NCBI GenBank assembly: GCA_963823335.1
Contig: CAWGLD010000004.1
Location: 68,382-132,381 of the forward strand
Length of the DNA: 64,000 nt
Source: an uncultured delta proteobacterium
GTDB lineage: Bacteria; Desulfobacterota; Desulfobacteria; Desulfobacterales; B30-G6
Reading direction: 5' to 3'
Shown piece by piece: positions 10,159 through 61,644 of this stretch. The number at the start of each line of letters is the position of its first letter. Within the stretch, counting starts at the first letter, position 1. The notes below the pieces were generated by a model. It was not told the origin of the DNA and searched no databases. It saw only the letters and a program-made list of their open reading frames with translations. A program made the translations under genes and the position numbers.

Positions 10159-10235
10159 TCCTTTGTTGACATAATAATGTCGACACGATCGGACAGGCCA
10201 GGATTCCCTATTCTCCCCCTCTGCCGGTTCAAGAA

Positions 10236-10946
10236 TCAGTCCGCCTGGACGACAAATGGACCTTCCGGAAAGCACTTTTTGCAGGGAGCATATCCTTCCC
10301 AGAAAGCTTCCCAAAGACTGGAAAAGAAAATTCTGTTCGCTCTGTTGGTTTGCAACCCGAATGGACAAGCCTCCCGATGAAATCGTCTGGATCGTTTATT
10401 GGCAAGGAGATTCAGCGCCTGTGCCTCCCATCCACGCCACATACCCTGTTTTCCTTGCATGGCAAGGCGCTGGGATTTTAGAAACAAATCATGATAACGA
10501 TGATTGGGAGGCGTGAACAAACAGTATGCCCATCCTTGCTCAAGCATCACCTTATTGATAAAAATCCTTTCGTGTGTATAGACATAGACAAGCCCTCTGC
10601 CGTAGCGATCCGATTTCTCTTCGCCGTAAGCTATATATACGTCTCGATTCCCCAGGAGTCGTGCATTATTATTTTTTGCTTCGATGCCAAAGGGCTCCAC
10701 GCTCCCGTTTCCGTTGTGTACTTCGGGGGCATTGATTCCAATGTACCGCACAAACTGGTTGTTATCCAAGAGAAGCGTATCCCCGTCCACGACACGCTTT
10801 ACATGGTGCGCATCCATGGCCGGAACTAGCGCCGGCGAAAAAAGAATTATCAGGCATATCAAAAAAGATGAACGTCCAACATCGAACATCGAACGTCCAA
10901 TTATGAATAAAAAAAACAATACCGAATTATTTCTGTTTCTTTTCAT
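10236..10946 (-). CDS. secreted thermonuclease (SNase-like) fused to a C-terminal Ada-type zinc-binding domain
   Basis: SNase core VVDGDTLLL...YIGINAPE...RYGRGLVYVY; C-terminus FHREACPFG..N...F.S...A...GYAPCKKC matches Ada_Zn_binding. The 5' end overlaps repeat R3; start may be ATG 10946 or the ATG inside the repeat arm (MFDVGRSSFLICLIILFSPALVPA signal-like). Confidence 0.75.
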   Translation of the reverse strand: MKRNRNNSVLFFLFIIGRSMFDVGRSSFLICLIILFSPALVPAMDAHHVKRVVDGDTLLLDNNQFVRYIGINAPEVHNGNGSVEPFGIEAKNNNARLLGNRDVYIAYGEEKSDRYGRGLVYVYTHERIFINKVMLEQGWAYCLFTPPNHRYHDLFLKSQRLAMQGKQGMWRGWEAQALNLLANKRSRRFHREACPFGLQTNRANRIFFSSLWEAFWEGYAPCKKCFPEGPFVVQAD

Positions 10947-11096
10947 CGGTTTTGATGCTCGTGCCGAAAATCTCAATTCTTCCGTTTCTTCCTTTCGCAG
11001 TTAAACACATTGAAGAACCTCGCAGCAAGCTACGGGGTTAGCGCTCGCTTTTTCGGTTCAAAATTCGATGTTGGACGTTCGATGTTCGATGTTCAA
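10861..11096 (+). mobile_element. IVS-like element, family A, copy R3 (carries a family C repeat in its interior)
   Basis: Left arm 10861-10905 AAAAAAGATGAACGTCCAACATCGAACATCGAACGTCCAATTATGAAT and right arm 11059-11096 AAAATTCGATGTTGGACGTTCGATGTTCGATGTTCAAA are complementary. Confidence 0.7.
11010..11061 (+). repeat. repeat family C, copy 2
   Basis: TTGAAGAACCTCGCAGCAAGCTACGGGGTTAGCGCTCGCTTTTTCGGTTCAA, aligns with 3660-3713. Confidence 0.7.
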
Positions 11097-11157
11097 ATTT
11101 TTTCTGTATCTTCTTTATTGGACGTAACCCTGCGATGTTTTATTGTTTCGGTTAAAA

Positions 11158-32648: not shown

Positions 32649-32653
32649 ACAAC

Positions 32654-32811
32654 AAATGAACATCGAACGTCCAACGTCCAACATCGAATTTTGAATGGGT
32701 AAGAATGAAGAAACAGACTTATTCTTTAGATAGAAAAACCGCTCGATTTTTCGACATTGTCTTTATTCTTTTCATTCGACGTTCGATGTTCGATGTTCGA
32801 TGTTCATCTTT
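32654..32811 (+). mobile_element. miniature IVS-like element, family A, copy R4
   Basis: Arms 32654-32699 and 32769-32811 are complementary; the interior starts GAATGGGTAAGAATGAAGAAACAG like other copies; it abuts the uvrC stop codon. Confidence 0.8.
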
Positions 32812-34645
32812 ATTTTCCCAATCCCTTTTTCAATGCCTGAGCTAACTTGCGATTCATCCCGGGCAGGGCTGCCAGAACGTCCAAATCCGCCGCTCCCACC
32901 GACTCGACACTCCCGAAATATTTCAGCAACAGCGCTTTTTTCTTTGGACCCACACCATGAATATCATCCAGCGCCGAATGCATGGCCTGCTTGCCGCGTA
33001 GTTTTCTATGATACTGAATAGCAAAGCGGTGCGCCTCATCCCTGACTTTTTGCAATAAAAGAAGACCATCCAGATCCCTCCCAAACGATACTGGATTGGC
33101 CCTTCCCCTCTGGTAGATCTTGTCCCTGACTTCGCCTTTTTTTTCATCTCTCTTTGCAATACCAACAATCTCGAAACGCTCGATCAGCCCCAGTCTATTG
33201 ATGATATCACCTGCAATGTTCAGCTGTCCTTTGCCGCCATCAACCACCAGAAGATCGGGCGCAGGGTCGCGTTTCTGGGTCTTGCCGTATCGCCGTCCCA
33301 ATACCTCAGCCATTGCTGCGTAATCATCGTGCATTTTGGCTGTGGTAAGACGGTATGTGCGATAAGCCGTTCTTTTCGGTCGTCCGTTTTCAAATACCAC
33401 CATACCGGAGACCGATGCCCGGCCGAATATATGGGAGTTGTCGAAGCACTCTATTCTTCTTGGCAGACGCTCCATCTTCAGACGTTTTTTGAGTCGCATC
33501 AATAACGCCATATCGGCGGCGTTGGATGCCAATGATTCCCGCAATCCATTTTCCGCATTTTCCATGGCCATCAAAAGGAGACCTTTTTTCTCTCCTCTCC
33601 GAGGATGGTGAACCTTAACCTTGCCCCCCCTGGACTCTTTCAGTATGCCTTCGATAATTTCTGCATCTTCAAGATAATGGGATACGAGAATTTCCGGTGG
33701 GATCATGTATGCCTGTTCATAAAACTGACGCAAAAATCCGGCAAGAATACCCTCTTCCGTAGCCAGAACCTTTTCAAAAACAAATTGACGTTTCCCCAAG
33801 AGAAAACCACCTCGGACATACAACATGGCTATCATGGCATGGTCTGAAGATGTCACCAGTGCAATGACATCCCGATCCCTCAAGTCGGTGCATACTGAAA
33901 GCTGCTTTTCAAGGGTCTTTTCAAGGGCAAAGAGTTTATCTCGCAATTCTGCGGCTTTTTCATATTGCTCCAATTCCGCCTGTAGATTCATCTCTTTCTT
34001 TATTTTCATGATCAGGTCTGGTGTTCGTCCATTCAGAAACAAAACGACTTCCTGTATCAAGGCACCATAAGTTTTTTTGTCGACATCCATACAACAGGGA
34101 GCAAGGCATCGTCGCATCTGATAGTGCAGGCAGGGTCTTGTTCTCTGGCTGAATTCCCTGTCCGAGCACTTGCGAAGCTTGAAGGTCCGGTTCACAATTT
34201 TAAGGGATTGCCTCACCGCCCCTGCCGATGTAAAAGGGCCGAAATAAAGGGTTCCGTCTTTTCTGATTTTCCGGACGATGGATATTTTTGGGTACGAATG
34301 GCGTGTGTTTATACGCAGGCAAGGATAGCGCTTATCGTCTTTCAGAATAACATTATATCTGGGTCTGTATTTCTTGATCAGATTTGACTCGAGGATCAGG
34401 GCTTCCTTTTCAGATCCGACAAGAATAATATCGAAAGCAGCCACCCTGCTCACCAGAACGCTTATCTTGGAATCCGTATGTTTTGATTTTGAAAAATAGG
34501 ATGCCAGTCGCTTCTTCAGCTGCGCCGCTTTCCCCACGTATATAATCTTACCCTCAATGTCCTTCAGCAGGTAGACACCCGGTCCTGAAGGTGTTCTTGA
34601 AAATTGTTTTTGTATGTCTGAAATAGCTGATAGCTCAGAGGTCAT
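32810..34645 (-). CDS. uvrC: excinuclease ABC subunit C
   Basis: GIY-YIG N-terminus (GVYLLKD..IIYVGKA), UVR domain, endonuclease V-like domain and C-terminal (HhH)2. Confidence 0.92.
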   Translation of the reverse strand: MTSELSAISDIQKQFSRTPSGPGVYLLKDIEGKIIYVGKAAQLKKRLASYFSKSKHTDSKISVLVSRVAAFDIILVGSEKEALILESNLIKKYRPRYNVILKDDKRYPCLRINTRHSYPKISIVRKIRKDGTLYFGPFTSAGAVRQSLKIVNRTFKLRKCSDREFSQRTRPCLHYQMRRCLAPCCMDVDKKTYGALIQEVVLFLNGRTPDLIMKIKKEMNLQAELEQYEKAAELRDKLFALEKTLEKQLSVCTDLRDRDVIALVTSSDHAMIAMLYVRGGFLLGKRQFVFEKVLATEEGILAGFLRQFYEQAYMIPPEILVSHYLEDAEIIEGILKESRGGKVKVHHPRRGEKKGLLLMAMENAENGLRESLASNAADMALLMRLKKRLKMERLPRRIECFDNSHIFGRASVSGMVVFENGRPKRTAYRTYRLTTAKMHDDYAAMAEVLGRRYGKTQKRDPAPDLLVVDGGKGQLNIAGDIINRLGLIERFEIVGIAKRDEKKGEVRDKIYQRGRANPVSFGRDLDGLLLLQKVRDEAHRFAIQYHRKLRGKQAMHSALDDIHGVGPKKKALLLKYFGSVESVGAADLDVLAALPGMNRKLAQALKKGLGK

Positions 34646-36648: not shown

Positions 36649-36682
36649 GGGCTCAATTAGGATCTTACTATGATGAATTTAT

Positions 36683-36843
36683 AAAAGATGAACATCGAAC
36701 ATTGAACATCGAACGTCCAATGCTGAATGCAAAGAAAAGTTCAATATTGAATAATTAAGCAGTTTTTCCAAGACATACACCTGTTTCTTCATTTACCCCA
36801 TTCAAAATTCGATGTTGGACGTTCGATGTTCGACGTTCATTTG
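36683..36843 (-). mobile_element. miniature IVS-like element, family A, copy R5 (inverted orientation)
   Basis: Arms 36683-36735 and 36796-36843; the minus-strand interior GAATGGGGTAAATGAAGAAACAGGTGTATGTCTTGGAAAAACTGCTTAATTATTC aligns with the 5' end of the 48567 ORF; the cysS stop TGA lies in the arm terminus. Confidence 0.8.
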
Positions 36844-38285
36844 TCAATTTCCCAGTGAGTCCCATCCGGACGGTCCTTGAGAACAATATTCATGGATGCC
36901 AGCTGTTCTCTGATCTGATCGGCCCTTTGCCAGTTTTTCTCCTGTCTTGCAACCTCACGGTCAGCGATCAATGTTTCAATTAATTTTGCGTCGATTGTTT
37001 CCTGTGCCAGAACAGATTCACGTTGAACATTGAAGTAGACATCCGGCGTATCGCCACCGATGCCCAGCACAGCCCCCATCCGCAGTATTTCCAATCTGAT
37101 GGCGAACAGCGATAACAACACATCCCGGGTATTCATGCTGGTTTCATGCTCATCCATGATACGGTTGGCATGCCTTACGGCATTGAAGATGACGGCGATA
37201 CCGTTGGCGGTATTGAAATCATCATCCATAGCTCGACAAAAATCCTTCCAGAATGGCATGACTGCCGGTGTCGTAGAAGGCTTCTTCACCCCGGCGAGAG
37301 TCTCATCTATTCGAAGAAGCAGGGCATAAATCCGGTCCAGAGCAGTTCGTGACGCCTCCATGGAATCCTGGTTGAAATCAATAGGCTTTCGATACTGTTT
37401 CGAGAGCAGAAAAAGCCTGATGGACTCTGGGTGGTAATGCTGAATGACATCTTTTATCATCCGGAAATTGCCCAGAGACTTGGACATTTTTTCCTTGTCT
37501 ATATTCACAAACCCGTTATGGATCCAGTATCGAACAAAATCACGTCCATGTACCGCCTCTGACTGGGCAATTTCATTTTCATGATGAGGGAATATCAGAT
37601 CTCTGCCACCTCCATGAATATCGAAGGTTTCGCCCAGGTATTTGGCACTCATGGCCGAGCATTCGATGTGCCAACCCGGTCGCCCCTTCCCCCATGGGCT
37701 GTCCCATGACGGTTCACCCTCTTTTGCAGATTTCCAGAGAATAAAATCGAAGGGATTACCCTTGCGGGGGTCTACTTCCACGCGGGCCCCCGGATCCATG
37801 TCTTCCAGATGACGATTCGATAATTTGCCATAGGCATCAAAGGTTTCAACAGCAAAAAAAACATCCCCATCGACCACGTAGGCAACCTTCTTTGCTATCA
37901 GCTTTTCGACGAGTTGAATCACATCGTCAATATGCTCCGTTACCCTCGGCTCAAAACTGGCTCTTTCCACCTTCAGGGCATCCATGTCCCGGTAGAATTC
38001 CTCGATATATTTATCAGCCAGCGCTTTCGGATCCATACCGCTTTCTGCTGCACGACGTATGATCTTGTCGTCGATGTCGGTAAAATTTCTCACGTAGACA
38101 ACGTCATAACCCTTGGTTTTCAAATATCGGGAGATCACGTCGAATACAACCACGGACCGGGCATGCCCAATGTGGCAGGAGTCATAAACCGTTGGTCCAC
38201 AAACGTACATGAGCACCTTTTCAGGCTCAATGGTTTGGAACAATTCTTTCTTCTGGGTTAAGGTGTTATAGATGGAAATGGGCAT
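36837..38285 (-). CDS. cysS: cysteine--tRNA ligase
   Basis: HIGH (CHIGHARS) and KMSKS motifs; 482 aa. Confidence 0.95.
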   Translation of the reverse strand: MPISIYNTLTQKKELFQTIEPEKVLMYVCGPTVYDSCHIGHARSVVVFDVISRYLKTKGYDVVYVRNFTDIDDKIIRRAAESGMDPKALADKYIEEFYRDMDALKVERASFEPRVTEHIDDVIQLVEKLIAKKVAYVVDGDVFFAVETFDAYGKLSNRHLEDMDPGARVEVDPRKGNPFDFILWKSAKEGEPSWDSPWGKGRPGWHIECSAMSAKYLGETFDIHGGGRDLIFPHHENEIAQSEAVHGRDFVRYWIHNGFVNIDKEKMSKSLGNFRMIKDVIQHYHPESIRLFLLSKQYRKPIDFNQDSMEASRTALDRIYALLLRIDETLAGVKKPSTTPAVMPFWKDFCRAMDDDFNTANGIAVIFNAVRHANRIMDEHETSMNTRDVLLSLFAIRLEILRMGAVLGIGGDTPDVYFNVQRESVLAQETIDAKLIETLIADREVARQEKNWQRADQIREQLASMNIVLKDRPDGTHWEIDK

Positions 38286-38357: not shown

Positions 38358-38522
38358 GAGTCAGGGTTTGAGGGGTGGAGGGGTGCGGCTTGCAGGATAA
38401 TAGACAATAAACTGTATATTACTAAACACCTAATAGTCTGCTGTCTACTACTTGTTGTCCGGGTATACCCTCCAACCCATCAAACCTCCAACCCTCCAAC
38501 CCTTCAATCCTCCAACCCTTCC
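38358..38522. repeat. long imperfect hairpin with octamer-unit arms (GGGTTNAN type)
   Basis: GAGTCAGGGTTTGAGGGGTGGAGGGGTGCGG (38358-38388) vs CCGGGTATACCCTCCAACCCATCAAACCTCCAACCCTCCAACCCTTCAATCCTCCAACCCTTCC (38459-38522); the right arm runs into the ispF 3' end (..EGLED*). Confidence 0.6.
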
Positions 38523-46496: not shown

Positions 46497-46760
46497 AAGA
46501 AGGATTCAAGGATTCCAGGGGTCCAGGGTTCGAGTGAGATGAAGTGAGGCATCAGCTAAATGCTTAAAAATTGTAAAGAGTTAAAAGTTGTGGATTGGAA
46601 ACACAGACGATGATATCCGGTGTTTTGGATTATATGAACAAGAAAAAGCTTCAGGGATTAAGAGAGGAGCTTGGGGATGTAGAGAGAATGCTAAAAGCGA
46701 TGATCAAATCCCTGGAAAACAAACACTTCAATCCTTGAATCCTGGACTCCTTGAACCCTT
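46497..46760 (+). mobile_element. IVS-like palindromic element, family B (octamer arms) with a four-helix-bundle gene remnant
   Basis: Left arm AAGAAGGATTCAAGGATTCCAGGGGTCCAGGGTTCGAGTGAG (46497-46538) pairs imperfectly with CACTTCAATCCTTGAATCCTGGACTCCTTGAACCCTT (46724-46760). Confidence 0.7.
46568..46738 (+). pseudogene. 3' fragment of a four-helix-bundle (23S rRNA IVS protein family) gene
   Basis: The open frame reads ..ELKSCGLETQTMISGVLDYMNKKKLQGLREELGDVERMLKAMIKSLENKHFNP*, matching the last two helices of PF05635-type proteins; the N-terminal half is absent. Confidence 0.6.
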
Positions 46761-46812
46761 TCTCCCAACTTGTTGGGAGAAGAACTAAAGAATAAAACAA
46801 GCGAGATAAACT

Positions 46813-48525
46813 GTGAAAACAAAAAAGAAGTTTGGAGAAATGCTCATGGAGGCCGGGTTGCTGAGCGAAGATCAGCTAAAACAGGCCATCATCGACCATA
46901 AACGAACGAACATGAAACTGGGACAGTATCTTGTTCGTGAGGGAATTGTCAGCGGATCTCAGGTGGTCGATATAATATCAAAACAGCTGAAAATAAAAAA
47001 ATACAACCCTGACGACTATCCCGTCGATATCGAGCTCTCCAAAGTAATACCCCTGGAACTTGCCCAGAAATTCCAGGCCGCGCCATTAAGAAAGAGCAAA
47101 TTCCTCCTGACCCTCGCAATGACCGATCCCATGGATATTACCGCACTCGATTCCATCGAAGTTTACACCAATACGGAAGTTGAAGCGGTTATCTCAACAT
47201 ACCAGGAGCTCAACCACTTGATCGGCAGCCTGTATGGCACCTACTCCGGCATCGATGGTGTTCTTGAAGGCATGCAGGATATGCAGATTGAAAGAGATGA
47301 CGATGAAGACACGTCACGGGCGGCCATCGAAGATATCGAGGTCAGCTCCCTGCAGGACATGGCCGAAGAAGCGCCGGTTATACGTCTCGTCAACTCGATT
47401 CTTTCCCAGGCAGTCAGGGAGGGCGCCAGTGATGTCCATATCAGCCCGGAAAAAGATTATGTCCAGGTGAGGTTTCGGGTTGACGGCAAACTTCATGAAC
47501 TGCCGGCGCCACCCAAGACCATGATATTACTTATCATATCAAGACTGAAGATTCTCTCCAACATGGACATCTCGGTTTCGAGAATTCCCCAGGATGGACG
47601 TTTCACCATCAAAATGGATGAAAAGGAAATCAACATCCGATCGTCCACCATCCCCACTATTTATGGGGAAAATATGGTCTTGCGACTTCTTGACACAAGC
47701 GGCGGGGTGCACTCTCTTGAAGAACTGGGAATGTCCATGGCTGATATTCGCAAACTTGAACCCATGATCCACAAACCCTATGGCATGATTTTGAGCACCG
47801 GACCCACGGGTAGCGGCAAGAGTACGACACTTTATTCAATCCTCAAAAGGATCAATCAGCCCGATATCAATATTATCACCATAGAAGACCCGGTTGAATA
47901 CCGTATCAACAAGATCAGACAGATCCAGCTCAACCGAAAAGCCGGGATGACTTTCGCAAGCGGACTGCGTTCCATCATGCGGCAGGATCCTGACGTCATC
48001 ATGGTCGGCGAAATCCGGGATCCTGAAACTGCCTCGATTGCCGTTCAGTCAGCTCTTACCGGCCACCGGGTGCTGAGCACGGTTCATACAAACGATGCCG
48101 CCGGTGCCATTACGCGCTTTATTGACATGGGCATCGAACCTTTTCTGGTTTCTTCGGTAATGCTTGTATCCATCGCACAACGCCTCGTCAGGAAAGTTTG
48201 CCCTTACTGTAAGAAACCCCACACCCCGCCGGCCTTGGCACTGGAATACTGGGGTCTCAACCACGCAGAAAATCCAAATTTCATGCAAGGCAATGGATGT
48301 TTTAACTGTATGGACAAAGGGTATAAGGGAAGAATCGGTGTATATGAAATCCTTATAATCGATGAAATGGTCCAGGATATGATTCTCAAAAGAAATTCAT
48401 CTCAGGAAATAGCCCGTGCAGCTATTCAGGCAGGGACATTGAAAACACTCAGGGATGACGCCGCAAAAAAGATTCTCCAGGGTATTACGACCATTGAAGA
48501 AGCTGCATCAGCGGTGATCGTATAG
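46813..48525 (+). CDS. type IV pilus/T2SS assembly ATPase (GspE/PilB family) with N-terminal MshEN-type domain (MshE-like)
   Basis: N-terminus FGEMLMEAGLLSEDQLKQAI (T2SSE_N/MshEN), Walker A GPTGSGKST, Asp and His boxes, tetracysteine CPYC..CFNC; GTG start. Confidence 0.88.
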   Translation: MKTKKKFGEMLMEAGLLSEDQLKQAIIDHKRTNMKLGQYLVREGIVSGSQVVDIISKQLKIKKYNPDDYPVDIELSKVIPLELAQKFQAAPLRKSKFLLTLAMTDPMDITALDSIEVYTNTEVEAVISTYQELNHLIGSLYGTYSGIDGVLEGMQDMQIERDDDEDTSRAAIEDIEVSSLQDMAEEAPVIRLVNSILSQAVREGASDVHISPEKDYVQVRFRVDGKLHELPAPPKTMILLIISRLKILSNMDISVSRIPQDGRFTIKMDEKEINIRSSTIPTIYGENMVLRLLDTSGGVHSLEELGMSMADIRKLEPMIHKPYGMILSTGPTGSGKSTTLYSILKRINQPDINIITIEDPVEYRINKIRQIQLNRKAGMTFASGLRSIMRQDPDVIMVGEIRDPETASIAVQSALTGHRVLSTVHTNDAAGAITRFIDMGIEPFLVSSVMLVSIAQRLVRKVCPYCKKPHTPPALALEYWGLNHAENPNFMQGNGCFNCMDKGYKGRIGVYEILIIDEMVQDMILKRNSSQEIARAAIQAGTLKTLRDDAAKKILQGITTIEEAASAVIV

Positions 48526-49012
48526 AAACTAATGAACATCGAACATCGAACGTCCAACATCGAATTTTGAATAAAAAGATAAAGAAACAGGCGTATGATC
48601 TGGAAGAAAGGTTGCTCGAGTATTCGGTGAGAATCGTAAAACTCGTTGAACAACTTCCAAATACCAAGGCAGGCAGTCATATTGCGGGGCAATTGTTAAG
48701 ATCTGGAACTTCACCATACCCAAATCATGGTGAAGCTCAGGCAGCGGAATCCCCGAAAGACTTTATCCATAAATTACGTATTTCATTAAAGGAACTCAGG
48801 GAAACCCAGCGATGGTTAAAATTAATACAGCGAGTACCACTAATTAAAAAGCCTGAACTATTGAAGGATATTATCGAGGAAACTGAAGAATTAATTAAGA
48901 TTTTCGTCGCGAGCATTAAAACTGCGGAAAAGAGAAAGAGATAATTCATTATTGTTTGTTTTTCATTCGACATTGGACGTTCGATGTTCGATGTTGGACG
49001 TTCATCTTTAAA
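48526..49012 (+). mobile_element. full-length IVS-like palindromic element, family A, copy R6 (carries an intact ORF)
   Basis: Left arm 48531-48572 and right arm 48961-49009 are near-perfect reverse complements enclosing the 48567-48944 ORF. Confidence 0.85.
48567..48944 (+). CDS. four-helix-bundle protein (23S rRNA intervening-sequence protein family, PF05635/TIGR02436-like)
   Basis: ..AGQLLRSGTSPYPNHGEAQAAESPKDFIHKLRISLKELRETQRWLKLI.. fits the family signature; 125 aa with no internal Met; the TTG start lies inside the left arm. Confidence 0.8.
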   Translation: MNKKIKKQAYDLEERLLEYSVRIVKLVEQLPNTKAGSHIAGQLLRSGTSPYPNHGEAQAAESPKDFIHKLRISLKELRETQRWLKLIQRVPLIKKPELLKDIIEETEELIKIFVASIKTAEKRKR

Positions 49013-49042
49013 TAACCAAGAAAACCCAACAAACAGGTTATT

Positions 49043-50266
49043 ATGCCGACATATTCATACCAGGCCATTAACGAATCCGGTTCCACTGTCACCGGTGAGG
49101 TCGAAGCCGAATCCACGGACATGGCCAACAACATTCTTTCCGCCAGGGGGTACCTGCCATCACGGGTGGTTGAAAAGGGTCAGATAGTACCCAGTGATTT
49201 TAGCAAACAGCTCAGAGAACGCTTCACATTCATCAAACCGCCTGAACTGATACTCTTTACCAAACAGTTCAAGACACTTATTAAAGCGGGTATACCCATC
49301 TTGAAAATTTTTAAGGTCATTGAAAATCAGACCGAAAACATTGTCTTAAAAGATATGGTCCTGTCTATTTCGCAGGATGTACAGCAAGGGTCCAGTCTTC
49401 ATGACGCGTTCCGGAAACACCCCAAGGCCTTTTCGCCTCTTTACTGCAGCATGTTGCGCGCTGGGGAAGCCAGCGGGGCATTGCCGGAGATACTGGAACG
49501 TCTGATTTATATCCTCGAACATGAGCACAAGATAAAGTCCGAGATTCGGGCAGCGCTTTCTTATCCCATCATCGTTATTTCCTTTTTAGGCATCGCTTTT
49601 TTTGTTCTCCTGACCTTTGTCATTCCTAAATTTGTCACGATTTTCGAAAGATCGAGTGTCGCACTCCCGCTGCCGACACAGATCTGCATGCTGATGTACC
49701 AGGTTCTTGCCAATTACTGGCTGATAATGCTCGTTGGTCTCATTGGCGGCATCGTATTTCTGAACTACTATTTAAAAACCGAACAGGGGCTTTTGGCCAA
49801 AGACACCTTACTGATGCGTCTTCCTCTCTTAGGACCACTTTTTGCAAAAGCCGCCATGGCAAGGTTTGCGAGTATTTTCTCTATCCTGCAGGCCAGTGGT
49901 GTTCCCGTCCTCGACTGCATTCGCATTTTAACGGAAACCATTGGGAATCAGGCTATTTCAAAAGAATTCGCCCTTGTAACAGAACGTCTTGAGGAAGGGC
50001 GTGGACTGGCGGAGCCATTGAAATCCGCTAAGTATTTTCCGCCGATTGTCATCAATATGATCGCCATCGGAGAAGAATCGGACAACCTCGAAGACATGCT
50101 CAACGAAATTGCGTTGCATTACGATTCTGAACTCGAATATGCCATGAAAAAACTGTCCGAGGCCCTCGGACCTTTATTGACACTCGGGCTGGCAGTTGTG
50201 GTCGGTTTTTTTGCCCTCGCGATCTATCTGCCCATGTGGGATATGACCAAGATGAGCGGATTATAA
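49043..50266 (+). CDS. type IV pilus/T2SS inner-membrane platform protein (GspF/PilC family, MshG-like)
   Basis: Two T2SSF repeats, three TM segments, 407 aa. Confidence 0.88.
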   Translation: MPTYSYQAINESGSTVTGEVEAESTDMANNILSARGYLPSRVVEKGQIVPSDFSKQLRERFTFIKPPELILFTKQFKTLIKAGIPILKIFKVIENQTENIVLKDMVLSISQDVQQGSSLHDAFRKHPKAFSPLYCSMLRAGEASGALPEILERLIYILEHEHKIKSEIRAALSYPIIVISFLGIAFFVLLTFVIPKFVTIFERSSVALPLPTQICMLMYQVLANYWLIMLVGLIGGIVFLNYYLKTEQGLLAKDTLLMRLPLLGPLFAKAAMARFASIFSILQASGVPVLDCIRILTETIGNQAISKEFALVTERLEEGRGLAEPLKSAKYFPPIVINMIAIGEESDNLEDMLNEIALHYDSELEYAMKKLSEALGPLLTLGLAVVVGFFALAIYLPMWDMTKMSGL

Positions 50267-50303
50267 AATCTCTCCGCGATTTTATTTGGCGCGATGTTGT
50301 CGC
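50263..50303 (-). repeat. bipartite boundary hairpin motif, copy h
   Basis: ATAAAATC-tctccgc-GATTTTAT TTGGC GCGAT-gtt-GTCGC; the platform-gene stop TAA (50264-50266) is inside the AT hairpin. Confidence 0.7.
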
Positions 50304-50536
50304 TTATAAATGCACGATATAAATTCCTACTTTTAAAATCCTGAGAAACCAGACATACTATGAATATTTCAGATGGTTTCAGAGATCGAATATAGTTTAT
50401 ACCGCTTGTCATAATACTGTTCCGAAAATAGGATGGCGGCATAAGGGGTTGTAGCAGAAAAAAGGTCCTCAATCGGAACGTTTTTCTGACAACCCCTATA
50501 TAACTATATGTAATCATTATTATGCAATAAAAACTA

Positions 50537-50577
50537 GCGACGCAGTCGCGTCAAATAAAATTGCGGAGCAATTTTAT
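50537..50577 (+). repeat. bipartite boundary hairpin motif, copy i
   Basis: GCGAC-gca-GTCGC GTCAAAT AAAATTG-cggag-CAATTTTAT; the loop carries the only GGAG upstream of ATG 50576, which overlaps the motif end; inverted relative to copy h. Confidence 0.75.
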
Positions 50578-54832: not shown

Positions 54833-57601
54833 ATGAACCTAATTCAAAATTCAACATTAAACATTAAAAATTGCCCCTCTCCACTGGCCAATGCATCTGG
54901 CGCTGTTCTGCTGACAGTGGTGATTATTATCATTATCGTCGGCATGGCGGGTGTTGCCATGTATTCCTTGACCAGCACATCCACTTTTACCCAGTTGTAC
55001 GCCCAGAATGCAACCAGAGCCTATTATCTGGCTGAATCCGGTTTCAGGGTGGTTGCCAGCGAATACAATAATGCCGATGATGACGAGAAATTGGATGTTC
55101 TGGGAAATCTGCATGGGACAACCCTCAGCCTGCCGGGCAATACCGGGCAATTCGATATGAGGCTTTACCCGTACTGGTTTTATGTCAGCAGCGCCTACAC
55201 AGCCAACAGCACCAGCATCAATGTTAAAATACCGGGTGGCACACCTTTGAGAAACCCGGCCGATACCGGCTCCCCCAGGGTATCGCTTCCCAACAGCGGT
55301 TACCTGAAACTGCAGAGCAAAAGCCAGTTGGCTGCCATATCCTCGGTGTCTCCCGGTTCTCCTGCAGATGGCGCTACGATTACCTTCGGTATCAATCCAG
55401 GATTCCCCTATGACATTCAGACCGATGAGGAGCTTTTTCTGGTCTATACGGACAATAACACCACCAGCCAACCAGCGGTTCCCCAAGATGGCAGCATCGA
55501 TTTCCCAGGCACCAATCCGGTTGCCCAGTTACTGCCGGCCCAGAACGGTTCCTTCAGGGTATACAACGAAGACAACGATAAAATGGACTATACCTATTTG
55601 GAAAAATTTCCACCGGCTGTCGATCCCGGGAACCCCCCAACCACCATTACACTGAGCGGCATCCAGCACCAGAACGACGGCGACCCATCCGTGTTCCCGT
55701 TTACCATCGACAACACCTCCGAAATATACTTTGGCCGGAACCTGGCTGTCTTTTCCACCTCCACCTTCGGAACCGGTACCATGGCTGCCAGAAAGACCGT
55801 GGGCAATTATACCGATGTGGGGCTGGATGGCGGTTTTTTCAAGGATAAAGACACCATTTCTTTTGAGAAGGAGATTGGCGATTTCACGCCTACCATGAGC
55901 GATCCGGGACCGGGATATCCTGACCCCATTGAAATCGACACCACCAATAAAACCATTAAACTGGGCGGCAATCTCATCGATGAATACGGTTCTGTCTGGT
56001 ACAAGGGCTATACGGACATCGCCGACTGTATTCAGGGCAACTGCCTTTTGGGCCGGGGTTTTCGGGCTTATTTCGAGTTTACATTTGACAACACGGACAA
56101 TTCCATCGCCAGCACGGATTTCGGCGACGGGTTCACCTTTTCTCTTGTCAGCGGTGCCAATTACACCAATGGTGATACCGGTTTAGGTGGCGAGTACATG
56201 GGATATGCCGGCCCAGGTCTTTCCAGCAACGGACTGCAGCCGCCCAAACTGGCAGTCGAGATCGATACCTACCCGAATACAGGTGCCGGCAGTGTGTGCA
56301 ACGACAGTACTGATAGTCGGCGCGACGATGAGCCTGTGGCCAACCACACCGCCCTGGTTTACTGGGGTGAAGAAAGCGTCGGTTCTATTGATGCTCAGGG
56401 CGGATACATTCGTATCGGATCCGCATCACCTTCCGTTGGGGAGCCCGAGGACTGGAGCTCCTCCCAAGGAACCATCAGCTTCTGGTTCAAACGCGATACC
56501 ATTTTCTACGGTGACGGAAATACGAGCGGTGACAGGCTGTGGGGACAGGACGCCAACATGGAAACCCGTTTTTCCGGCACAACAGGCTCAAATTTTTTTC
56601 TCGACTGGGGTACTGGTGGTGAAGGTTCAATCAATGCAATCAACCCGTTTACCGGGGCTGGCACATGGTACTTTATTGCCATCACATGGGATGATGCAAC
56701 GGATCAATTGAAAGTTTATTCCGGCAATCAAACCACCGTCTCACTTCTTGCGGAAAATCTGGCCTGGACAGGAGATATGAACGCCCTTGGAATAATTACT
56801 GAAAATCTTTTCCTGAACTCCAGCGGTGGCAACAGTTCGAAAAATTTTGCTGCCGATGGTAACGGCTCAGACCTGCGTTACTACAATGTCGCCAGGAGTC
56901 TGTCCGATATAGAAAGCGATTACAAGGTGCGGCGGACCGGCAGTGAAGCCGGCCTGCAGGCCTATTTCCCCTTGCAGGCGGATCTGTTGGATGCCGGCCC
57001 CACCGGCATAGCAGACTCCTCGACCATAGGGAACACGGACTGGTCCACAGACACCATCGCCGCTTTCGATTGTGGAACGGTATTAGCAGTGAAAAGAGCA
57101 ACGTATGACGACAACCGCCATGGCGCCGGCGGCAGCCCCACCACCACCACTCCTCAGAACTCCCTGAACAGCAATAGCGGCAACGGCTATGACGGGTACC
57201 ACCAGGTCACGGGTTCCAGTCCCAACTGGCTTGAAGATGGATCGCCGCACAGACTCCGCATGGAACTGATACGACCTCTCATTCTGGCGGCCGACGGCGA
57301 CATCGACGCGTTCTATGATTACCAGGTAAAAATCTGGATCGACTGCGCCACCTGTTCGGCAGCTGAGCTAGCCCAGTTCAAGGACGTACGGGCGGATTTT
57401 TCGGCCAGTCTTCCACAGATCGAAAAAACCATTAATAGAGGAAACTCCCTGAAAATCGACCCTGCTGATCATCTCGACTTGTTACGTGTCCTGTTCGGAT
57501 TTACCCAGGGTACCGGCGGTGCGACACAGAACATTACCCTTCGCAACCTCGAACTTTATTTTCTGAAGGAATACCCGGTGTCCTACCCGGCTGCATGGTA
57601 A
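54833..57601 (+). CDS. large pilus-associated protein: PilX-like N-terminal anchor, legume-lectin-like domain and LamG-like domain (MshQ/PilY1 functional analogue)
   Basis: N-terminal hydrophobic helix AVLLTVVIIIIIVGMAGVAMY; LAVEIDT (56249-56269) fits the legume lectin beta-chain signature [LIV]-[STAG]-V-[DEQV]-[FLI]-D-[ST]; ..GTISFWFKRD...WYFIAITWDDATDQLKVYSGN.. resembles Laminin_G_3. Confidence 0.65.
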   Translation: MNLIQNSTLNIKNCPSPLANASGAVLLTVVIIIIIVGMAGVAMYSLTSTSTFTQLYAQNATRAYYLAESGFRVVASEYNNADDDEKLDVLGNLHGTTLSLPGNTGQFDMRLYPYWFYVSSAYTANSTSINVKIPGGTPLRNPADTGSPRVSLPNSGYLKLQSKSQLAAISSVSPGSPADGATITFGINPGFPYDIQTDEELFLVYTDNNTTSQPAVPQDGSIDFPGTNPVAQLLPAQNGSFRVYNEDNDKMDYTYLEKFPPAVDPGNPPTTITLSGIQHQNDGDPSVFPFTIDNTSEIYFGRNLAVFSTSTFGTGTMAARKTVGNYTDVGLDGGFFKDKDTISFEKEIGDFTPTMSDPGPGYPDPIEIDTTNKTIKLGGNLIDEYGSVWYKGYTDIADCIQGNCLLGRGFRAYFEFTFDNTDNSIASTDFGDGFTFSLVSGANYTNGDTGLGGEYMGYAGPGLSSNGLQPPKLAVEIDTYPNTGAGSVCNDSTDSRRDDEPVANHTALVYWGEESVGSIDAQGGYIRIGSASPSVGEPEDWSSSQGTISFWFKRDTIFYGDGNTSGDRLWGQDANMETRFSGTTGSNFFLDWGTGGEGSINAINPFTGAGTWYFIAITWDDATDQLKVYSGNQTTVSLLAENLAWTGDMNALGIITENLFLNSSGGNSSKNFAADGNGSDLRYYNVARSLSDIESDYKVRRTGSEAGLQAYFPLQADLLDAGPTGIADSSTIGNTDWSTDTIAAFDCGTVLAVKRATYDDNRHGAGGSPTTTTPQNSLNSNSGNGYDGYHQVTGSSPNWLEDGSPHRLRMELIRPLILAADGDIDAFYDYQVKIWIDCATCSAAELAQFKDVRADFSASLPQIEKTINRGNSLKIDPADHLDLLRVLFGFTQGTGGATQNITLRNLELYFLKEYPVSYPAAW

Positions 57602-57803: not shown

Positions 57804-57974
57804 AAAGAGATGAACATCGAGCATCGAACGTCCAACATCGAATTTTGAATGGGAAAAGATGAAGAAATGGGCCAATGATCTTTAATAAAGTCCGCTTGAC
57901 TATTCGTCGGTATTGTTTTTTTCTTTTCATTCGATGTTGGACGTTGAATGTTCGATGTTGGACGTTCATCTTTT
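57804..57974 (+). mobile_element. miniature IVS-like element, family A, copy R7
   Basis: Arms 57804-57852 and 57922-57974; interior GAATGGGAAAAGATGAAGAAATGGGCCAATGATC... Confidence 0.8.
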
Positions 57975-58070
57975 AAATCTTTACTTTGGCATAAATGCAG
58001 TTTGTACTTGATATGCCAATAGATACGATCGATTTTTTGTAAAACGTCATTGTTTTATCGCTTGGGAACC

Positions 58071-58300
58071 AATGAACGTCGAACATCGAACGCTCAACAT
58101 CGAATTTTGAATGGGTATAAATGAAGAAACAGGTGTATGTTGAATGGGAAAAGATGAAGAAATGGGCCAATGATCTTTAATAAAGTCCGCTTGACTATTC
58201 GTCGGTATTGTTTTTTTCTTTTCATTCGATGTTCATCTTTTAAACCTTTTTTGATTCATCATTGGACGTTCGATGTTCGATGTTCGATGTTCATCTTTTA
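58071..58300 (+). mobile_element. IVS-like element, family A, copy R8, containing a nested partial copy of R7
   Basis: Outer arms 58071-58113 and 58259-58300; 58141-58243 repeats the R7 interior plus a truncated arm. Confidence 0.7.
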
Positions 58301-58396
58301 AATATTTACTACGGCATAAATACTGTTTGTACTTGATATGCCAATAGATACGATGGATTTCTTGTAAAATGTTAATTGTTTTAAAGCCGGGGAACC

Positions 58397-58631
58397 AATG
58401 AACATCCAACATCGAACGTCCAACATCGAATTTTGAATTTAAAAGATGAAGAAACAAGTATATGATTTCCTGTCATTCCCGTGTGTTTGCTCCTTAGCAG
58501 GAATGGGACGAGAGTCCAGTGGACACTATATATGCACGGCTTACCCGAATTTTTTAAGAAGTTGCTAACTTCAGCATTAAATATTTCTTTTCATTCGACG
58601 TTGGATGTTCGATGTTGGACGTTCATCTTTT
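58397..58631 (+). mobile_element. IVS-like element, family A, copy R9 (longer interior)
   Basis: Arms 58397-58440 and 58586-58631; the interior begins AAAAGATGAAGAAACAAGTATATGATTTCC (the ORF 5' homology). Confidence 0.75.
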
Positions 58632-58660
58632 AAAAAGTTCTGTAAAGGAATTTAATTAAA

Positions 58661-60838
58661 TTGAACATAAATACCATTCTGAAAAAATACAAAACTTCTG
58701 AAAGAAAAACACTCTCAGAACACGAATCCAAACAGATACTGCAGGCCTATGGTATCCCTGTTGTCCGGGAGACCGTCGCTACAACAAAAGAAAACGCAGT
58801 GGCGGCAGCCCTGGAAATCGGCTTCCCCATCGTTTTGAAGGGACTGGGTGCCCGGTTGACCCACAAGACCGAGCGCGGTCTGGTGCATACGCACCTGAAA
58901 ACCAAAACCGAGGTTCGATCAGCCGCCGAGAACATACAGCAAAAGGCCGGGAGTGATCTGGAAGGCTTTCTTGTCCAGCCCCAGATCCAGGGGAAAAGGG
59001 AGTGGATCGCGGGTCTTTCCCATGACGATCAGTTCGGACCGGTCATCATGTTCGGTGCCGGCGGCATTTTAACCGAAGCCATCTCGGATGTGACCTTCCG
59101 CCTTGCGCCTTTGTCACCTGAGGACGCCCAGGCGATGATCCATGAAATCAAATCATCTGCCTTACTCGACAATTTCCGGGGCGAGGCAAAAATTGACAAA
59201 ATACAGCTCGTTAAAGTTCTCACAGGTTTGAGTAAACTTGTCCAAGATCATCCTGAAATTGTCGAGGTGGATATCAACCCCCTCATCGCGACTCCCAGCG
59301 GGGATTTAATGGCCGTCGATGCGCTGGTGGTTGTGGGTACCAAACACCAAACAGCCGCCTCACCTCCCAGCACCTTCCAACCGGAGTCTCTGATGCCCTT
59401 CTTTTATCCCAAATCCATTGCCTTTATCGGTGCCTCTGCCACCATGGGCAAGTGGGGCCACATGCTGGTGGCAAACACCAAAAGCGGCGGCTATGCGGGA
59501 AAGATATACCTTGTCAATCCAAAAGGGGGGAAAATTGTGGGCCAAGAGGCCTATCGATCCCTTTCCGATATTCACGACCCGGTCGACCTTGCCATCGTCA
59601 CCATACCGGCCGAACATGTGATAAGCCTGATTCCGCAGCTACAGGCAAAAGGCATCCATCACATGCTTCTGATAACCTCAGGATTCTCCGAAACCGACAA
59701 CGCCGGAAAAAAACGCGAAAAAGAACTGGTCGCATCGGCGCGGCAGGCCGGAATCCAGATACTGGGTCCCAACACCATGGGTATCTGCAATCCCCACGTG
59801 GCTCTCAACTGCACCAGCCTGCCCGTACAACCGAGACCGGGATCCACCGCTCTTGTATCCCAATCCGGGAACATGGGCACCCAGTTCCTGGCCTTTGCAG
59901 AACATCAGGGCATCGGTATCCGTGGTTTTTGTGGGTCCGGCAATGAAGCCATGACCACCATCGAAGACTTTCTGGAAGTTTTTGAAGCGGATGAGCTCAC
60001 AAAAACCGTCATGCTCTATATCGAAAGTGTCAAAAATGGCCGTCGCTTTTACGAGACCGCCAGGCGTCTGGGGAAAATAAAACCGATTATTCTGATGAAA
60101 GGCGGACAAACTCAAGCCGGCATCAAGGCGGCAGCCAGCCATACCGGAGCGTTGAGTACCGATGCCAGAATTTTCAATTCGGTTTGCAGGCAGGCAGGCA
60201 TTGTCAAGGTGGAACAGTCCATGGATCTGCTCGATCTGGCTGCGGCCTTCTCTTCCCTGCCGCTGCCCAAAGGCAATCGTGCCGGTATCATGACCCTTGG
60301 GGGCGGCTGGGGTGTGGTCACCGCCGATCTGTGTAACGAATACCATATAGACGTTCCAGACCTGTCCCCCGGTCTGATCGAGCAGATCGACAAGTGGCTG
60401 CCCCCTTTCTGGAGCCGATCAAACCCCATCGATCTCGTTGGAGAACACAACGACACCCTGCCGCTGACAATTATCGAAGAACTCTTAAAATGGGACGGCT
60501 GTGATGCCGTTATCAATCTCGGTATCATGGGTCGCAAACATCTGGCCGGACTCTATGTCGATGCTGTCAAGCGTTCTGACCCCATGTACGAGCCCTCATT
60601 TTTAGACAGCATTAAAGAAACACTAGCGGCATTTGAAAAAAGATATGTCGAAGAAATCGCCAGACTCATGGAGATCTACCAGAAACCCGTTATCGGCGTC
60701 TCCCTCTTGACAGATGCCCTGGATCGTACCACGTATTTGGTTGAAAACTGCCCATACAAAGGTGTTTTCTACACAACCCCGGAGCGCGCCGTTAAAACGC
60801 TGGCTAAAATGGTGCAATACAGTAAGTATAAAACGTAG
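58661..60838 (+). CDS. ADP-forming (NDP-forming) acyl/acetyl-CoA synthetase, fused ATP-grasp + CoA-binding + ligase-CoA domains
   Basis: N-terminal ATP-grasp (..LSEHESKQILQAYGIPV..), then CoA-binding ..PKSIAFIGAS....GG.. and SCS-alpha-like domains with a phosphohistidine-type loop (AASHTGAL); TTG start. Confidence 0.8.
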   Translation: MNINTILKKYKTSERKTLSEHESKQILQAYGIPVVRETVATTKENAVAAALEIGFPIVLKGLGARLTHKTERGLVHTHLKTKTEVRSAAENIQQKAGSDLEGFLVQPQIQGKREWIAGLSHDDQFGPVIMFGAGGILTEAISDVTFRLAPLSPEDAQAMIHEIKSSALLDNFRGEAKIDKIQLVKVLTGLSKLVQDHPEIVEVDINPLIATPSGDLMAVDALVVVGTKHQTAASPPSTFQPESLMPFFYPKSIAFIGASATMGKWGHMLVANTKSGGYAGKIYLVNPKGGKIVGQEAYRSLSDIHDPVDLAIVTIPAEHVISLIPQLQAKGIHHMLLITSGFSETDNAGKKREKELVASARQAGIQILGPNTMGICNPHVALNCTSLPVQPRPGSTALVSQSGNMGTQFLAFAEHQGIGIRGFCGSGNEAMTTIEDFLEVFEADELTKTVMLYIESVKNGRRFYETARRLGKIKPIILMKGGQTQAGIKAAASHTGALSTDARIFNSVCRQAGIVKVEQSMDLLDLAAAFSSLPLPKGNRAGIMTLGGGWGVVTADLCNEYHIDVPDLSPGLIEQIDKWLPPFWSRSNPIDLVGEHNDTLPLTIIEELLKWDGCDAVINLGIMGRKHLAGLYVDAVKRSDPMYEPSFLDSIKETLAAFEKRYVEEIARLMEIYQKPVIGVSLLTDALDRTTYLVENCPYKGVFYTTPERAVKTLAKMVQYSKYKT

Positions 60839-60878
60839 GGTCCGAGGGTTCAAGGGTGATACAAGGGTTCGAGGGTAG
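60838..60878. repeat. octamer-unit arm (family B type), possible left arm of a composite hairpin
   Basis: GGGTCCGAGGGTTCAAGGGTGATACAAGGGTTCGAGGGTAG; overlaps the TAG stop of the synthetase; candidate partner at 61645-61682. Confidence 0.5.
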
Positions 60879-61045
60879 CTGACGGCTATCGGCGGAGAGC
60901 AGCATCCCAGCCTCCGGGCGTTCCAGCATGCAAAGATGCAAGGACAAGCTATAAACCAGCGGCTATAGACTGTTAGCCGCCTACAGCCTAACAGTCTATC
61001 AGTCTAACAGCCTCCCGTTAGGCAAAGCCTGTGGGATTAAATAGA

Positions 61046-61266: not shown

Positions 61267-61408
61267 AAAAATGATGAACGTCGAACATCGAACGCTCAAC
61301 ATCGAATTTTGAATGGAGAGATGAAAAAACAGATGCGGGACTCGGGTTTAACTATTTCTTTTTATTCGACGTTGGACGTTGGATGTTCGATGTTGGACGT
61401 TCATCTTT
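61267..61408 (+). mobile_element. miniature IVS-like element, family A, copy R10
   Basis: Arms 61267-61316 and 61361-61408; interior AGAGATGAAAAAACAGATGCGGGACTCGGG. Confidence 0.8.
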
Positions 61409-61487
61409 AAGATCTTTTTAAACCCAAATCGGATACCTGCAAGAAAGCTTTATTCAATTGGCATAAATGATACTCCGATAGAAGTTT

Positions 61488-61599
61488 AAAAATGATGAAC
61501 GTCGAACATCGAACGCTCAACATCGAATTTTGAATGGAAAGATGAAAAAACAGATGCGGGACTCGGGTTTAACTATTTCTTTTTATTCGACGTTCATCT
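61488..61599 (+). mobile_element. miniature IVS-like element, family A, copy R11 (right arm truncated)
   Basis: The left arm and interior are nearly identical to R10; the right arm is reduced to TTTTTATTCGACGTTCATCT. Confidence 0.75.
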
Positions 61600-61644
61600 C
61601 AAGAAAACTTACTACAGCAAAAATCCTGGCTACTGCTCAGAGCT

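Follow-up and report, generated by a model that had tools for sequence, protein, structure and literature searches.

A family of palindromic elements with tandem-heptamer arms and a four-helix-bundle gene of the rRNA intervening-sequence type at gene junctions of a Desulfobacterales genome

An ORF-bearing hairpin element and its deletion derivatives

We analyzed a stretch of 64,000 nucleotides (the window) from an uncultured delta proteobacterium of the Desulfobacterales (contig CAWGLD010000004.1, positions 68,382 to 132,381), in which a palindromic element carrying a gene for a four-helix-bundle (4HB) protein lies between the pilus genes mshE and mshG. Our interpretation, to which we assign a probability of about 65%, is that this copy, named F, belongs to a selfish family of palindromic hairpin elements of the rRNA intervening-sequence (IVS) type that are organized like the miniature inverted-repeat type of transposable element (MITE). 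The coding form of the family carries the 4HB gene, copy F would be a start-defective member, and ten other copies in the window would be deletion derivatives. An earlier note on this DNA, made from the sequence alone, had proposed an IVS-like element family at gene junctions, and this proposal is supported by the hidden Markov model (HMM) matches, the further copies, the variable junctions, and the deletion derivatives described below.

Copy F is a module of ~475 nt (window positions 48532-49005) in which inverted arms enclose the 4HB gene. The left arm (48532-48577, plus strand) consists of ATGAAC, four tandem heptamers of the ATCGAAC/GTCCAAC type, and GAATTTTGAAT. The right arm (48960-49005, plus strand) is the heptamer array in reverse complement, and CTTTAAA comes after it. 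The tandem units are GAACATC, GAACGTC, and CAACATC (consensus SAACRTC). Each arm has 46 nt, with 382 nt between them. The arms had been described as near-perfect reverse complements; they are indeed inverted, but they are only 80% complementary over 46 nt, and 94% complementarity is reached only in a 31-nt core. The core pairs in a shifted register, which the tandem heptamers of the arms make possible. Folding of the RNA from 48526 to 49012, a check suggested at the outset, gave a minimum free energy of -129 kcal/mol (z = -4.2 versus shuffled sequences) with the terminal stem closing the structure. Complementary termini that form a long stem around the insert, a trait of IVSs, are thus present in copy F, and its site lies between protein-coding genes, not inside an rRNA helix (9, 25, or 45).

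The upstream host gene encodes an MshE-like ATPase with MshEN and T2SSE domains (46813-48525, plus strand) and the downstream one, identified by its domain match, an MshG-like T2SSF platform protein (49043-50266, plus strand). Domains and coordinates agree with the placement given before, between the mshE-like stop at 48525 and the mshG-like start at 49043. The gene cluster also holds a secretin and an AAA_22 protein, and a sigma-54 activator is found among the neighbours. The 30 nt in front of mshG (49013-49042, plus strand; AACCAAGAAAACCCAACAAACAGGTTATT) are what is left of another hairpin's A/C-rich right arm; that hairpin is present here in the close relatives L120 and L121. No Rfam family matched the element or any other part of the window, which hence contains no rRNA, and no defense system was matched by PADLOC. 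An assembly artefact or a chance arrangement was rejected, as the same locus occurs in an independent assembly and the arm pattern was found in 0 of 100 shuffles.

The only long open reading frame (ORF) between the arms (48567-48944, plus strand) has 125 codons when read from a TTG and no internal methionine codon; the canonical frame of 121 codons begins at 48579. The product had been assigned to the PF05635/TIGR02436 family, and HMM searches confirmed this with scores well above both cut-offs (56 bits against 33.8 for PF05635 and 90.6 bits against 24 for TIGR02436). A phmmer search matched the protein to 2RLD (E = 2.9e-17). The AlphaFold2 monomer model (pLDDT 89.7) was helical throughout, with five segments in DSSP, two of them nearly continuous, and in Foldseek searches it resembled the stand-alone proteins 2RLD (TM 0.82-0.88) and 2GSC (TM ~0.82). 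The 2RLD structure contains five chains, and the Xanthomonas homologue was reported to be a pentamer (PMC4990558). The full-length element encodes the 4HB protein alone, without a known catalytic domain. Comparison with the intact ORF-bearing copy of locus L064, whose protein is 87% identical to that of the window, gave a dN/dS of 0.108 (dS 0.70), which indicates that the 4HB protein has been under purifying selection.

The absence of internal methionine codons agrees with the earlier note, but the TTG in the left arm that it took as the start is not the start codon of the family, because short copies and full-length homologues start at an ATG 12 nt further downstream, which in copy F reads ATA (48579-48581). 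In the short window copies, a ribosome-binding site, GAATTTTGAATGg.AAAGATGAAGAAACAG, is followed by ATG AAG AAA CAG (MKKQ), and full-length homologues on other contigs begin at the same ATG (MKKQTYDLEE in loci L064 and L087). Exactly 121 amino acids were found in 49 of the best 120 homologue clusters, and one 121-residue homologue in which the ATG is present is 98% identical to the window protein. Copy F, otherwise intact, appears to have lost its start very recently and is probably start-defective rather than "autonomous", the label it had first been given. The ribosome-binding region GGGAAAAGA can pair, as read from the sequence, with UCUUUUC just inside the right arm, so that translation of an intact copy probably needs the stem to be opened or cut.

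Further copies of the arms, which the earlier note had advised to look for, proved to be numerous in the window and in other genomes. A 24-nt arm pattern (three mismatches or fewer) had 21 matches in the window and none in 100 shuffles, and nhmmer located 11 left and 9 right modules, corresponding to one ORF-bearing copy (F), eight complete short copies (A, C, D, E, G, H, I, and J), and two truncated copies (B and K). Common to the short copies are the arms, the motif GAATTTTGAATGg.AAAGATGAAGAAACAG..TATGA with the ribosome-binding site and start, and TTTCTTTTCATTCGA. The ORF remnant comprises the first 45-75 nt (15-25 codons) with the ribosome-binding site, and ~25 nt of the 3′ flank, TTTCTTTTCATTCGA, are kept. 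Retention of the arms, the 5′ end of the ORF, and the 3′ flank identifies the short copies as internal-deletion derivatives of the coding form. At least ten shorter copies with these features had been announced, and ten were recovered by alignment and nhmmer. With ~120-230 nt between the outer ends of their heptamer arrays, they are short, non-coding, multi-copy, and bounded by terminal inverted repeats, as is typical of MITEs.

Copy A (4877-5063, plus strand) lies between ispA and dxs and has a small AGCTGAT-heptamer hairpin nested in its loop (4944-4995). On the minus strand, copy B (10104-10162) is truncated to the left module and copy C (10862-11102) was recognized by nhmmer. Copy D (32651-32812, plus strand) directly follows the stop codon of mdh and is convergent with uvrC. 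Copy E (36679-36845, minus strand), whose remnants were read by eye and confirmed by nhmmer, separates cysS from uvrB. The TGA stop codon of cysS comes from the terminal ATGAAC of this copy (36836-36845, minus strand), so that the insertion has reshaped the end of a housekeeping gene. The remaining copies, all on the plus strand, surround an ADP-forming acyl-CoA synthetase gene (acs) that starts at 58661. Upstream of it are copy G (57804-57978), which keeps ~75 nt of the ORF 5′ end, copy H (58065-58303), which is nested or recombinant with a G-like segment inside, and copy I (58391-58636), which ends 25 nt before the acs start; copies J (61268-61413) and K (61489-61600, right arm truncated) are located downstream.

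Distribution, turnover, and placement of the family

Genome contigs were scanned with an exact 17-mer from the inner end of the arm. At least 115 loci were found, and a heptamer run adjoined the 17-mer in 74 of the 116 matches listed. Among these matches, the arm-bearing loci were mostly from Desulfobacterales ("Deltaproteobacteria") assemblies, with a few from Nitrospirota and PVC-group bins, and most copies were short. Judged by these matches, the element family is not peculiar to the source genome and appears to be widespread in Desulfobacterales. In 92 copies from many assemblies, arm positions were 80-99% conserved compared to 30-50% in the interior; the value for the innermost 17 nt of the arm is biased by the way the loci were retrieved, that for the outer heptamers is not. 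A protein database search gave at least about 8,000 matches, and the best 120 clusters were all 81-99% identical to the query. Where homologues were called longer than 121 amino acids, the extension was usually the translated arm (e.g., EHRTSNVQHRM, RPTSNVEWEKM, or MFDVGRS), showing that the arms accompany the 4HB gene on many independent contigs. Short copies of the GAACATC type were also present on ~12 IMG/VR viral contigs (among L209-L225), three of them (L216, L219, and L223) on a single 38.6-kb contig, IMGVR_UViG_3300033145_001804; no 4HB genes of the window lineage were found on viral contigs. These copies could represent colonized prophages or a route of horizontal spread. An rRNA IVS with the same arms, which the earlier note had considered, was not encountered, as none of the 115 arm-bearing loci listed contained 23S rRNA motifs.

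The mshE-mshG junction is occupied differently in relatives. In L124 (MshE 83% identical) a 32-nt spacer without an element was found, in L122 and L123 (MshE 89%) 93 nt of other sequence, and in L117-L121 (MshE 94-96%) hairpins of 117-154 nt with different tandem-repeat arms. The window retains the end of an L120-type right arm 3′ of copy F, indicating that different repeat-armed hairpins have replaced one another at this site. The possibility of an ordinary conserved spacer, raised in advance as a check, does not apply, as the junction is either empty or otherwise occupied.

A similar variability was observed around acs. Upstream of this gene there is a 125-nt spacer without an element in L207 (protein 86% identical), one copy at the corresponding place in L206 (87%), three copies in the window, where element and spacer together form a unit repeated in tandem, and yet another arrangement in L205 (98%). 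Downstream of acs, the DNA of L205 is 99% identical to the window and contains one extra unit; the L205 counterpart of copy K is a decayed full-length 4HB ORF, frameshifted and without the right arm. The element content thus differs between near-identical strains, which shows that the family changes within the time in which strains diverge. L205 and L116 are parts of the same contig (ENA ERZ25039603 contig_10409), on which the mshE-mshG junction does not differ from that of the window. An identical junction, a 98% identical acs protein, and a different element content nearby suggest that the relatedness is mosaic or that co-occurring strains have recombined. A metagenome scan with UvrB, in which the best relatives were only 71-73% identical, yielded no empty sites for copies D and E.

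To describe the placement of the elements, crude ORF calls were made around 57 copies, which were mostly located 3′ of genes or between cistrons. Between co-directional genes, ~21-23 copies were in sense orientation compared to 6 in antisense orientation (one-sided binomial, ~0.003); 11 copies were located between convergent genes and only 4 between divergent ones. The sense RNA folded better than the antisense RNA in 35 of 55 copies, by 2.9 kcal/mol on average (Wilcoxon p = 0.004), and pairing of the arms averaged about -42 kcal/mol in 48 distinct copies. We had also considered that the G/T- and A/C-rich arms of the relatives' hairpins favor the sense RNA by G-U asymmetry, which was rejected because their antisense folds were as good or better. 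The element ends read AAAAG / ATGAAC...GTTCAT / CTTTT, so that the stem is framed by an A-tract and a U-tract like a weak bidirectional terminator.

Some of these properties would fit RNA structures selected by the host as stabilizers of the upstream mRNA, as attenuators or terminators, or as devices of translational coupling, with the 4HB protein being a domesticated RNA-binding regulator. Copies are nearly confined to sites behind stop codons or between cistrons and spare the downstream ribosome-binding site, the AAAAG...CTTTT frame resembles a bidirectional terminator, both the orientation and the slightly higher stability of the fold favor the sense strand, and the 4HB protein is under purifying selection. 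Furthermore, the hairpins formed by short tandemly repeated repetitive (STRR) sequences between hupS and hupL of cyanobacteria have been discussed as stabilizers or coupling devices (PMC2670836). Yet the presence, number, and type of the elements vary at one junction among close relatives, even between strains that are 99% identical, and the same element occurs at unrelated housekeeping junctions and on viral contigs. Copies are nested and decay by frameshifts, loss of arms, and loss of the start codon, and only 4 U residues follow the stem, while copies are located within ispA-dxs and mshE-mshG, gene pairs in which efficient termination would presumably do harm. Taken together, a host function of this kind appears unlikely to us, and the selfish hairpin element family is the reading we follow.

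The same architecture in five phyla and inside a 23S rRNA gene

More divergent 4HB genes were obtained by an iterative protein search of all fetched loci and by a search of plasmid records with one of the proteins, from which 17 loci were fetched. They originate from Desulfobacterota, Cyanobacteriota, Gemmatimonadota, Bacteroidota, and Alphaproteobacteria. An inverted-repeat score of at least 14.5 between the 200-nt flanks was obtained for 16 of 21 4HB genes and for 2 of 396 random control positions (mean score 8.5, standard deviation 1.4). On Desulfobacterales contigs, the gene of L098 and the second 4HB gene of L064 are flanked by inverted arms of 40-50 nt that are ~365-385 nt apart and made of heptamers of the TAGGCTG type and of TGATTAG/TGGGTAG, and the gene of L108 has a CAATCTT array at its visible end.

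The arms are lineage-specific tandem heptamers, or octamers in the case of Gemmatirosa (GAGGGCAG; record without annotation). In Cyanobacteriota, the units are AGGTGAC in Anabaena sp. 90 (between cas6 and cas4), AGTAGGG in Nostoc edaphicum (between nrd genes), AGGGAAC in Nostoc sp. C052 (after a TraM-domain gene), and AAAAGGG in Geminocystis (after an AAA ATPase gene). In Riemerella the unit is GGTTYAA (after an Fe-S assembly gene), and in Azospirillum lipoferum 4B GAGGACG / GATGACA. A match between about five repeats per array and a pentameric protein was considered and dropped, as the arrays span 3-15 repeats across lineages and lend it no specific support. Three Nostoc copies have the right arm alone, with an insertion sequence (IS) transposase directly upstream in two of them; one broken 4HB ORF keeps the left arm alone, and the L156 gene has no arms.

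Three of the cyanobacterial plasmid 4HB genes are located within CRISPR-Cas operons, twice between cas6 and cas4 and once between cas10/cmr2 and cmr3 (L229, Anabaena sp. 90 pANA02; L232, Pseudanabaena galeata pPg_01; L243, Picosynechococcus PCC 7003 plasmid). Their location may account for the listing of 23S_rRNA_IVP among catalogued cas-associated genes.

In Azospirillum lipoferum 4B, the 4HB ORF (plasmid AZO_p2, 14392-14730) lies inside a large-subunit rRNA gene, which was delimited by the Rfam model LSU_rRNA_bacteria at L236 1684-4882 (2,693 bits, 3,199 nt). The arms, ~1,150-1,190 nt from the 5′ end of the rRNA, are 36 nt long, 86% complementary, and 397 nt apart. The insert is located in what we take, from E. 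coli numbering, to be the helix-45 region. With heptamer arms and ORF both inside the 23S gene, this genuine rRNA IVS of the ORF-bearing kind is built exactly like the window element. The window family can on this comparison be regarded as one lineage of a pan-bacterial class.

Comparison with known systems and interpretation

The ORF-bearing 23S rRNA IVSs of Leptospira, Coxiella burnetii, and A. lipoferum 4B likewise consist of a long terminal stem and an enclosed PF05635/TIGR02436 gene. The Coxiella IVS has 428-444 nt, a 28-bp stem, and an S23p ORF and is excised by RNase III in vitro (PMC4990558), compared to the ~475-nt module with 46-nt arms in the window. Unlike an rRNA IVS, the window element is found in an mRNA or intergenic context and has about ten deletion derivatives in 64 kb, and its arm sequence differs from that of the Azospirillum IVS. 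The 4HB protein family has been called functionally uncharacterized and was seen in rRNA insertions of Candidate Phyla Radiation (CPR) bacteria (bioRxiv 2024.02.27.582315).

Two further systems resemble the short copies. The cyanobacterial STRR sequences are tandem 7-bp repeats forming intercistronic hairpins, e.g., between hupS and hupL, with unknown function (PMC2670836). Their layout is like that of the short window copies, and heptamer arrays also flank the cyanobacterial plasmid 4HB genes, but the literature found does not connect STRR sequences with rRNA IVSs or with a 4HB gene between the repeats. Geobacter metallireducens has paired arrays between operon genes (e.g., moaA-mosC and proB-proA), each with 3-5 hepta- or octanucleotide units in tandem; the two arrays of a pair are on opposite strands, ~100 nt or a variable distance apart. 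They were described by Aklujkar et al. (2009) as "global regulator binding sites" of classes 1-3 and read as IHF/HU sites (PMC2700814). The paired inverted tandem arrays are alike, but the repeat sequences differ and neither an ORF-bearing form nor a link to 4HB genes was reported. The window family itself fits the description of a tandem-heptamer hairpin, with two inverted arrays of 7-8-nt units that can pair and that are located between or 3′ of cistrons. A link of 4HB/IVS-protein genes to tandem-heptamer arms or MITE-like families was not found in the open-access literature.

MITEs and the repetitive extragenic palindromes (REP) and their bacterial interspersed mosaic elements (BIME) are likewise short, multi-copy, intergenic, and palindromic, and the short window copies are related to the coding element by internal deletion. 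Unlike these, the longer window element codes for neither a transposase nor an enzyme of the RAYT type, and its arms are tandem heptamers instead of unique repeats or GC-rich REP stems. The Correia elements of Neisseria (CREE/NEMIS) have 26-bp inverted repeats, not tandem arrays, and a TA duplication, and no coding master copy is known. The window family differs from them in that no duplication was found and that a protein-coding full-length form exists. Correia elements are abundant small palindromes that are co-transcribed with neighbouring genes and polymorphic between strains, and their hairpin RNA binds RNase III, which either cleaves or protects it (PMC2649163); among intergenic palindromes on which RNase III acts in mRNAs, they are the best studied. 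An integron cassette was rejected because a single attC and an integrase would belong to it, a retron or diversity-generating retroelement (DGR) because no reverse transcriptase is located at the element, and a REP/RAYT system because an HUH enzyme is missing and the arms do not resemble REP.

For the selfish family we propose the following mechanism, for which rRNA IVSs serve as the analogue. The complete form would be a 4HB gene of ~121 codons with its own ribosome-binding site within inverted arms of 30-46 nt made of 4-5 tandem heptamers. As the elements are located just after stop codons or between cistrons and mostly in sense orientation, they should be transcribed as part of host mRNAs. 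In the mRNA, the arms would form a stem of about -42 kcal/mol that RNase III would probably cut, as in 23S rRNA IVSs, whereby the element would be excised and the operon transcript split. Conservation of the arms is far higher than that of synonymous positions in the gene, and every 4HB lineage has its own heptamer, which makes sequence-specific recognition by a trans-acting factor most likely. The cognate 4HB protein, presumably pentameric and related to Avd of DGRs, would be an obvious candidate for recognizing its own arms.

Several results weigh against this interpretation. Copy F lacks a proper start codon, 6 of ~28 copies between co-directional genes and 3 of ~13 cyanobacterial 4HB genes are in antisense orientation, and the 4HB gene of Pseudanabaena is flanked by direct, not inverted, heptamer arrays. 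The homologous S23p protein of Coxiella is reportedly not made in vivo (PMC4990558). The own arms of a copy paired no better than foreign arms (-42.0 versus -41.4 kcal/mol, p = 0.75), i.e., there was no compensatory evidence for selection on pairing, which is kept by conservation of the consensus and not by compensation. Part of the change in copy number is clearly tandem duplication or deletion by unequal recombination; dispersal to many unlinked junctions needs a transposition-like process. A consistent direct repeat indicating target-site duplication was not detected in 49 copies, in which the flanks AAAAG and CTTTT are themselves palindromic and no base-precise empty/filled pair was available, and no transposase, recombinase, or reverse transcriptase was found in or beside the element when the neighbouring genes were scanned. 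With respect to the direct arrays, the Pseudanabaena locus (L232) has AAAAGCT ~15 times upstream (253-412) and AAAAGCC ~10 times downstream (773-880) of the gene; the tandem array of heptamers may be more fundamental, with complementarity as a frequent but not general addition.

The missing compensation and the antisense folds, which are nearly as stable as the sense folds, would be expected if the elements were MITEs acting at the DNA level, moved by an unlinked conventional transposase or a hairpin-recognizing HUH enzyme, with the 4HB gene as a passenger and RNA folding as incidental. Terminal inverted repeats, small size, many copies, deletion derivatives, and conserved termini like those bound by a transposase agree with this explanation as well. 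It is weakened in that no consistent target-site duplication was detected in the 49 copies and no transposase within any full-length copy seen, although an IS transposase adjoins some records in which an arm is missing. In addition, recurrence with lineage-specific arms in five phyla and in rRNA is not what one would expect of a passenger, and the 4HB protein has been under purifying selection within the element. We regard such passenger MITEs as distinctly improbable.

Movement via RNA, in which the hairpin released by RNase III is copied by a reverse transcriptase supplied in trans and the 4HB protein acts as an Avd-like cofactor, would fit that neither a target-site duplication nor a transposase was detected, and also the sense bias, by which the elements would be transcribed. 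PF05635 proteins are related to and resemble Avd, the cofactor of DGRs that binds RNA and reverse transcriptase (PMC10053308), and the Foldseek search weakly recovered the Avd chains 8ub7_E and 4dwl_E (TM 0.55-0.63), whose four-helix-bundle fold and family are related. This structural match is, however, weak (E 0.2-0.5), no reverse transcriptase was present near any copy examined, poly(A) and template- or variable-repeat features were not found, and antisense copies exist. Unlike avd in a DGR, the window ORF has neither an adjacent reverse transcriptase nor template and variable repeats around it. An RNA intermediate is in our opinion very improbable, and we keep to a selfish hairpin family with putative RNase III processing.

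The ORF of some rRNA IVSs, which is conserved but looks functionless, the cyanobacterial STRR hairpins, and the paired repeat sites of Geobacter are three long-standing oddities without an accepted explanation. Our comparison suggests that they are faces of one class, composed of a 4HB gene within tandem-heptamer arms and its deletion derivatives. In a more far-reaching and clearly tentative form of this idea, which we think is rather less probable than its opposite, the 4HB "IVS proteins" would be maintenance or mobility factors that bind heptamer arrays sequence-specifically, in an unrecognized pan-bacterial class of hairpin elements, of which rRNA IVSs, STRR hairpins, and Geobacter sites would be manifestations or decay products and which would move without a known transposase, possibly targeting hairpin tips in rRNA and mRNA genes. 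If the three oddities do form one class, the function of the 4HB protein is directly testable via binding to its own array and its need in spread or processing. In sulfate reducers, cyanobacteria, and other groups, thousands of operon junctions would then carry built-in, strain-variable double-stranded RNA processing sites, with consequences for operon expression, genome assembly, and annotation.

Besides the family described here, a second, different hairpin element (46498-46765, plus strand) with tandem octamer arms AGGATTCA / CTTGAATC is located between the AAA_22 (MshM-like) gene and mshE. Its interior encodes the peptide LQGLREELGDVERMLKAMIKSLENK, which has weak similarity to the C-terminal end of TIGR02436 (E = 0.011, short of the cut-off) and whose three best NCBIfam matches are all 4HB families; the hairpin is thus probably a decayed element of another 4HB lineage. 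Octamer arrays GAGGGGTG / ACCCTCCA are present near 38.4 kb (38370-38519), AGGGTTCA-type arrays and a TAGGCTG/CAGCCTA-type hairpin right after the acyl-CoA synthetase gene (60837-61010), and a 42-nt inverted repeat with 231 nt between its arms just downstream of mshG (50263-50577). The genome accordingly appears to hold several families of repeat-armed hairpins.

Nested elements were observed in other genomes: a TAGGCTG-type hairpin inside a GAACATC-type copy (L114 1290-1870), GC-rich mini-hairpins in and beside the arms of a copy (L064 2150-2780), and an unrelated palindromic insert of ~170 nt that splits a 4HB ORF (L087 1490-1680). Such nesting could reflect a preference for insertion into existing hairpins. 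The window-ORF homologues P0010, P0011, P0014, P0015, and P0052 contain an in-frame insert near the C-terminus, RQAVRRAHGPEQSRRTHGPERSRRA, which resembles the translation of a small GC-rich palindromic insert within the 4HB gene.

Finally, for an ORF of 922 amino acids (54833-57601) Pfam gave no match at E <= 1e-5. Only a faint match to Laminin_G_3 was seen in its orthologues, which are located after a gene with an N_methyl (pilin-like) signal, and in the close strain L205 it is split into ORFs of 613 and 170 amino acids.

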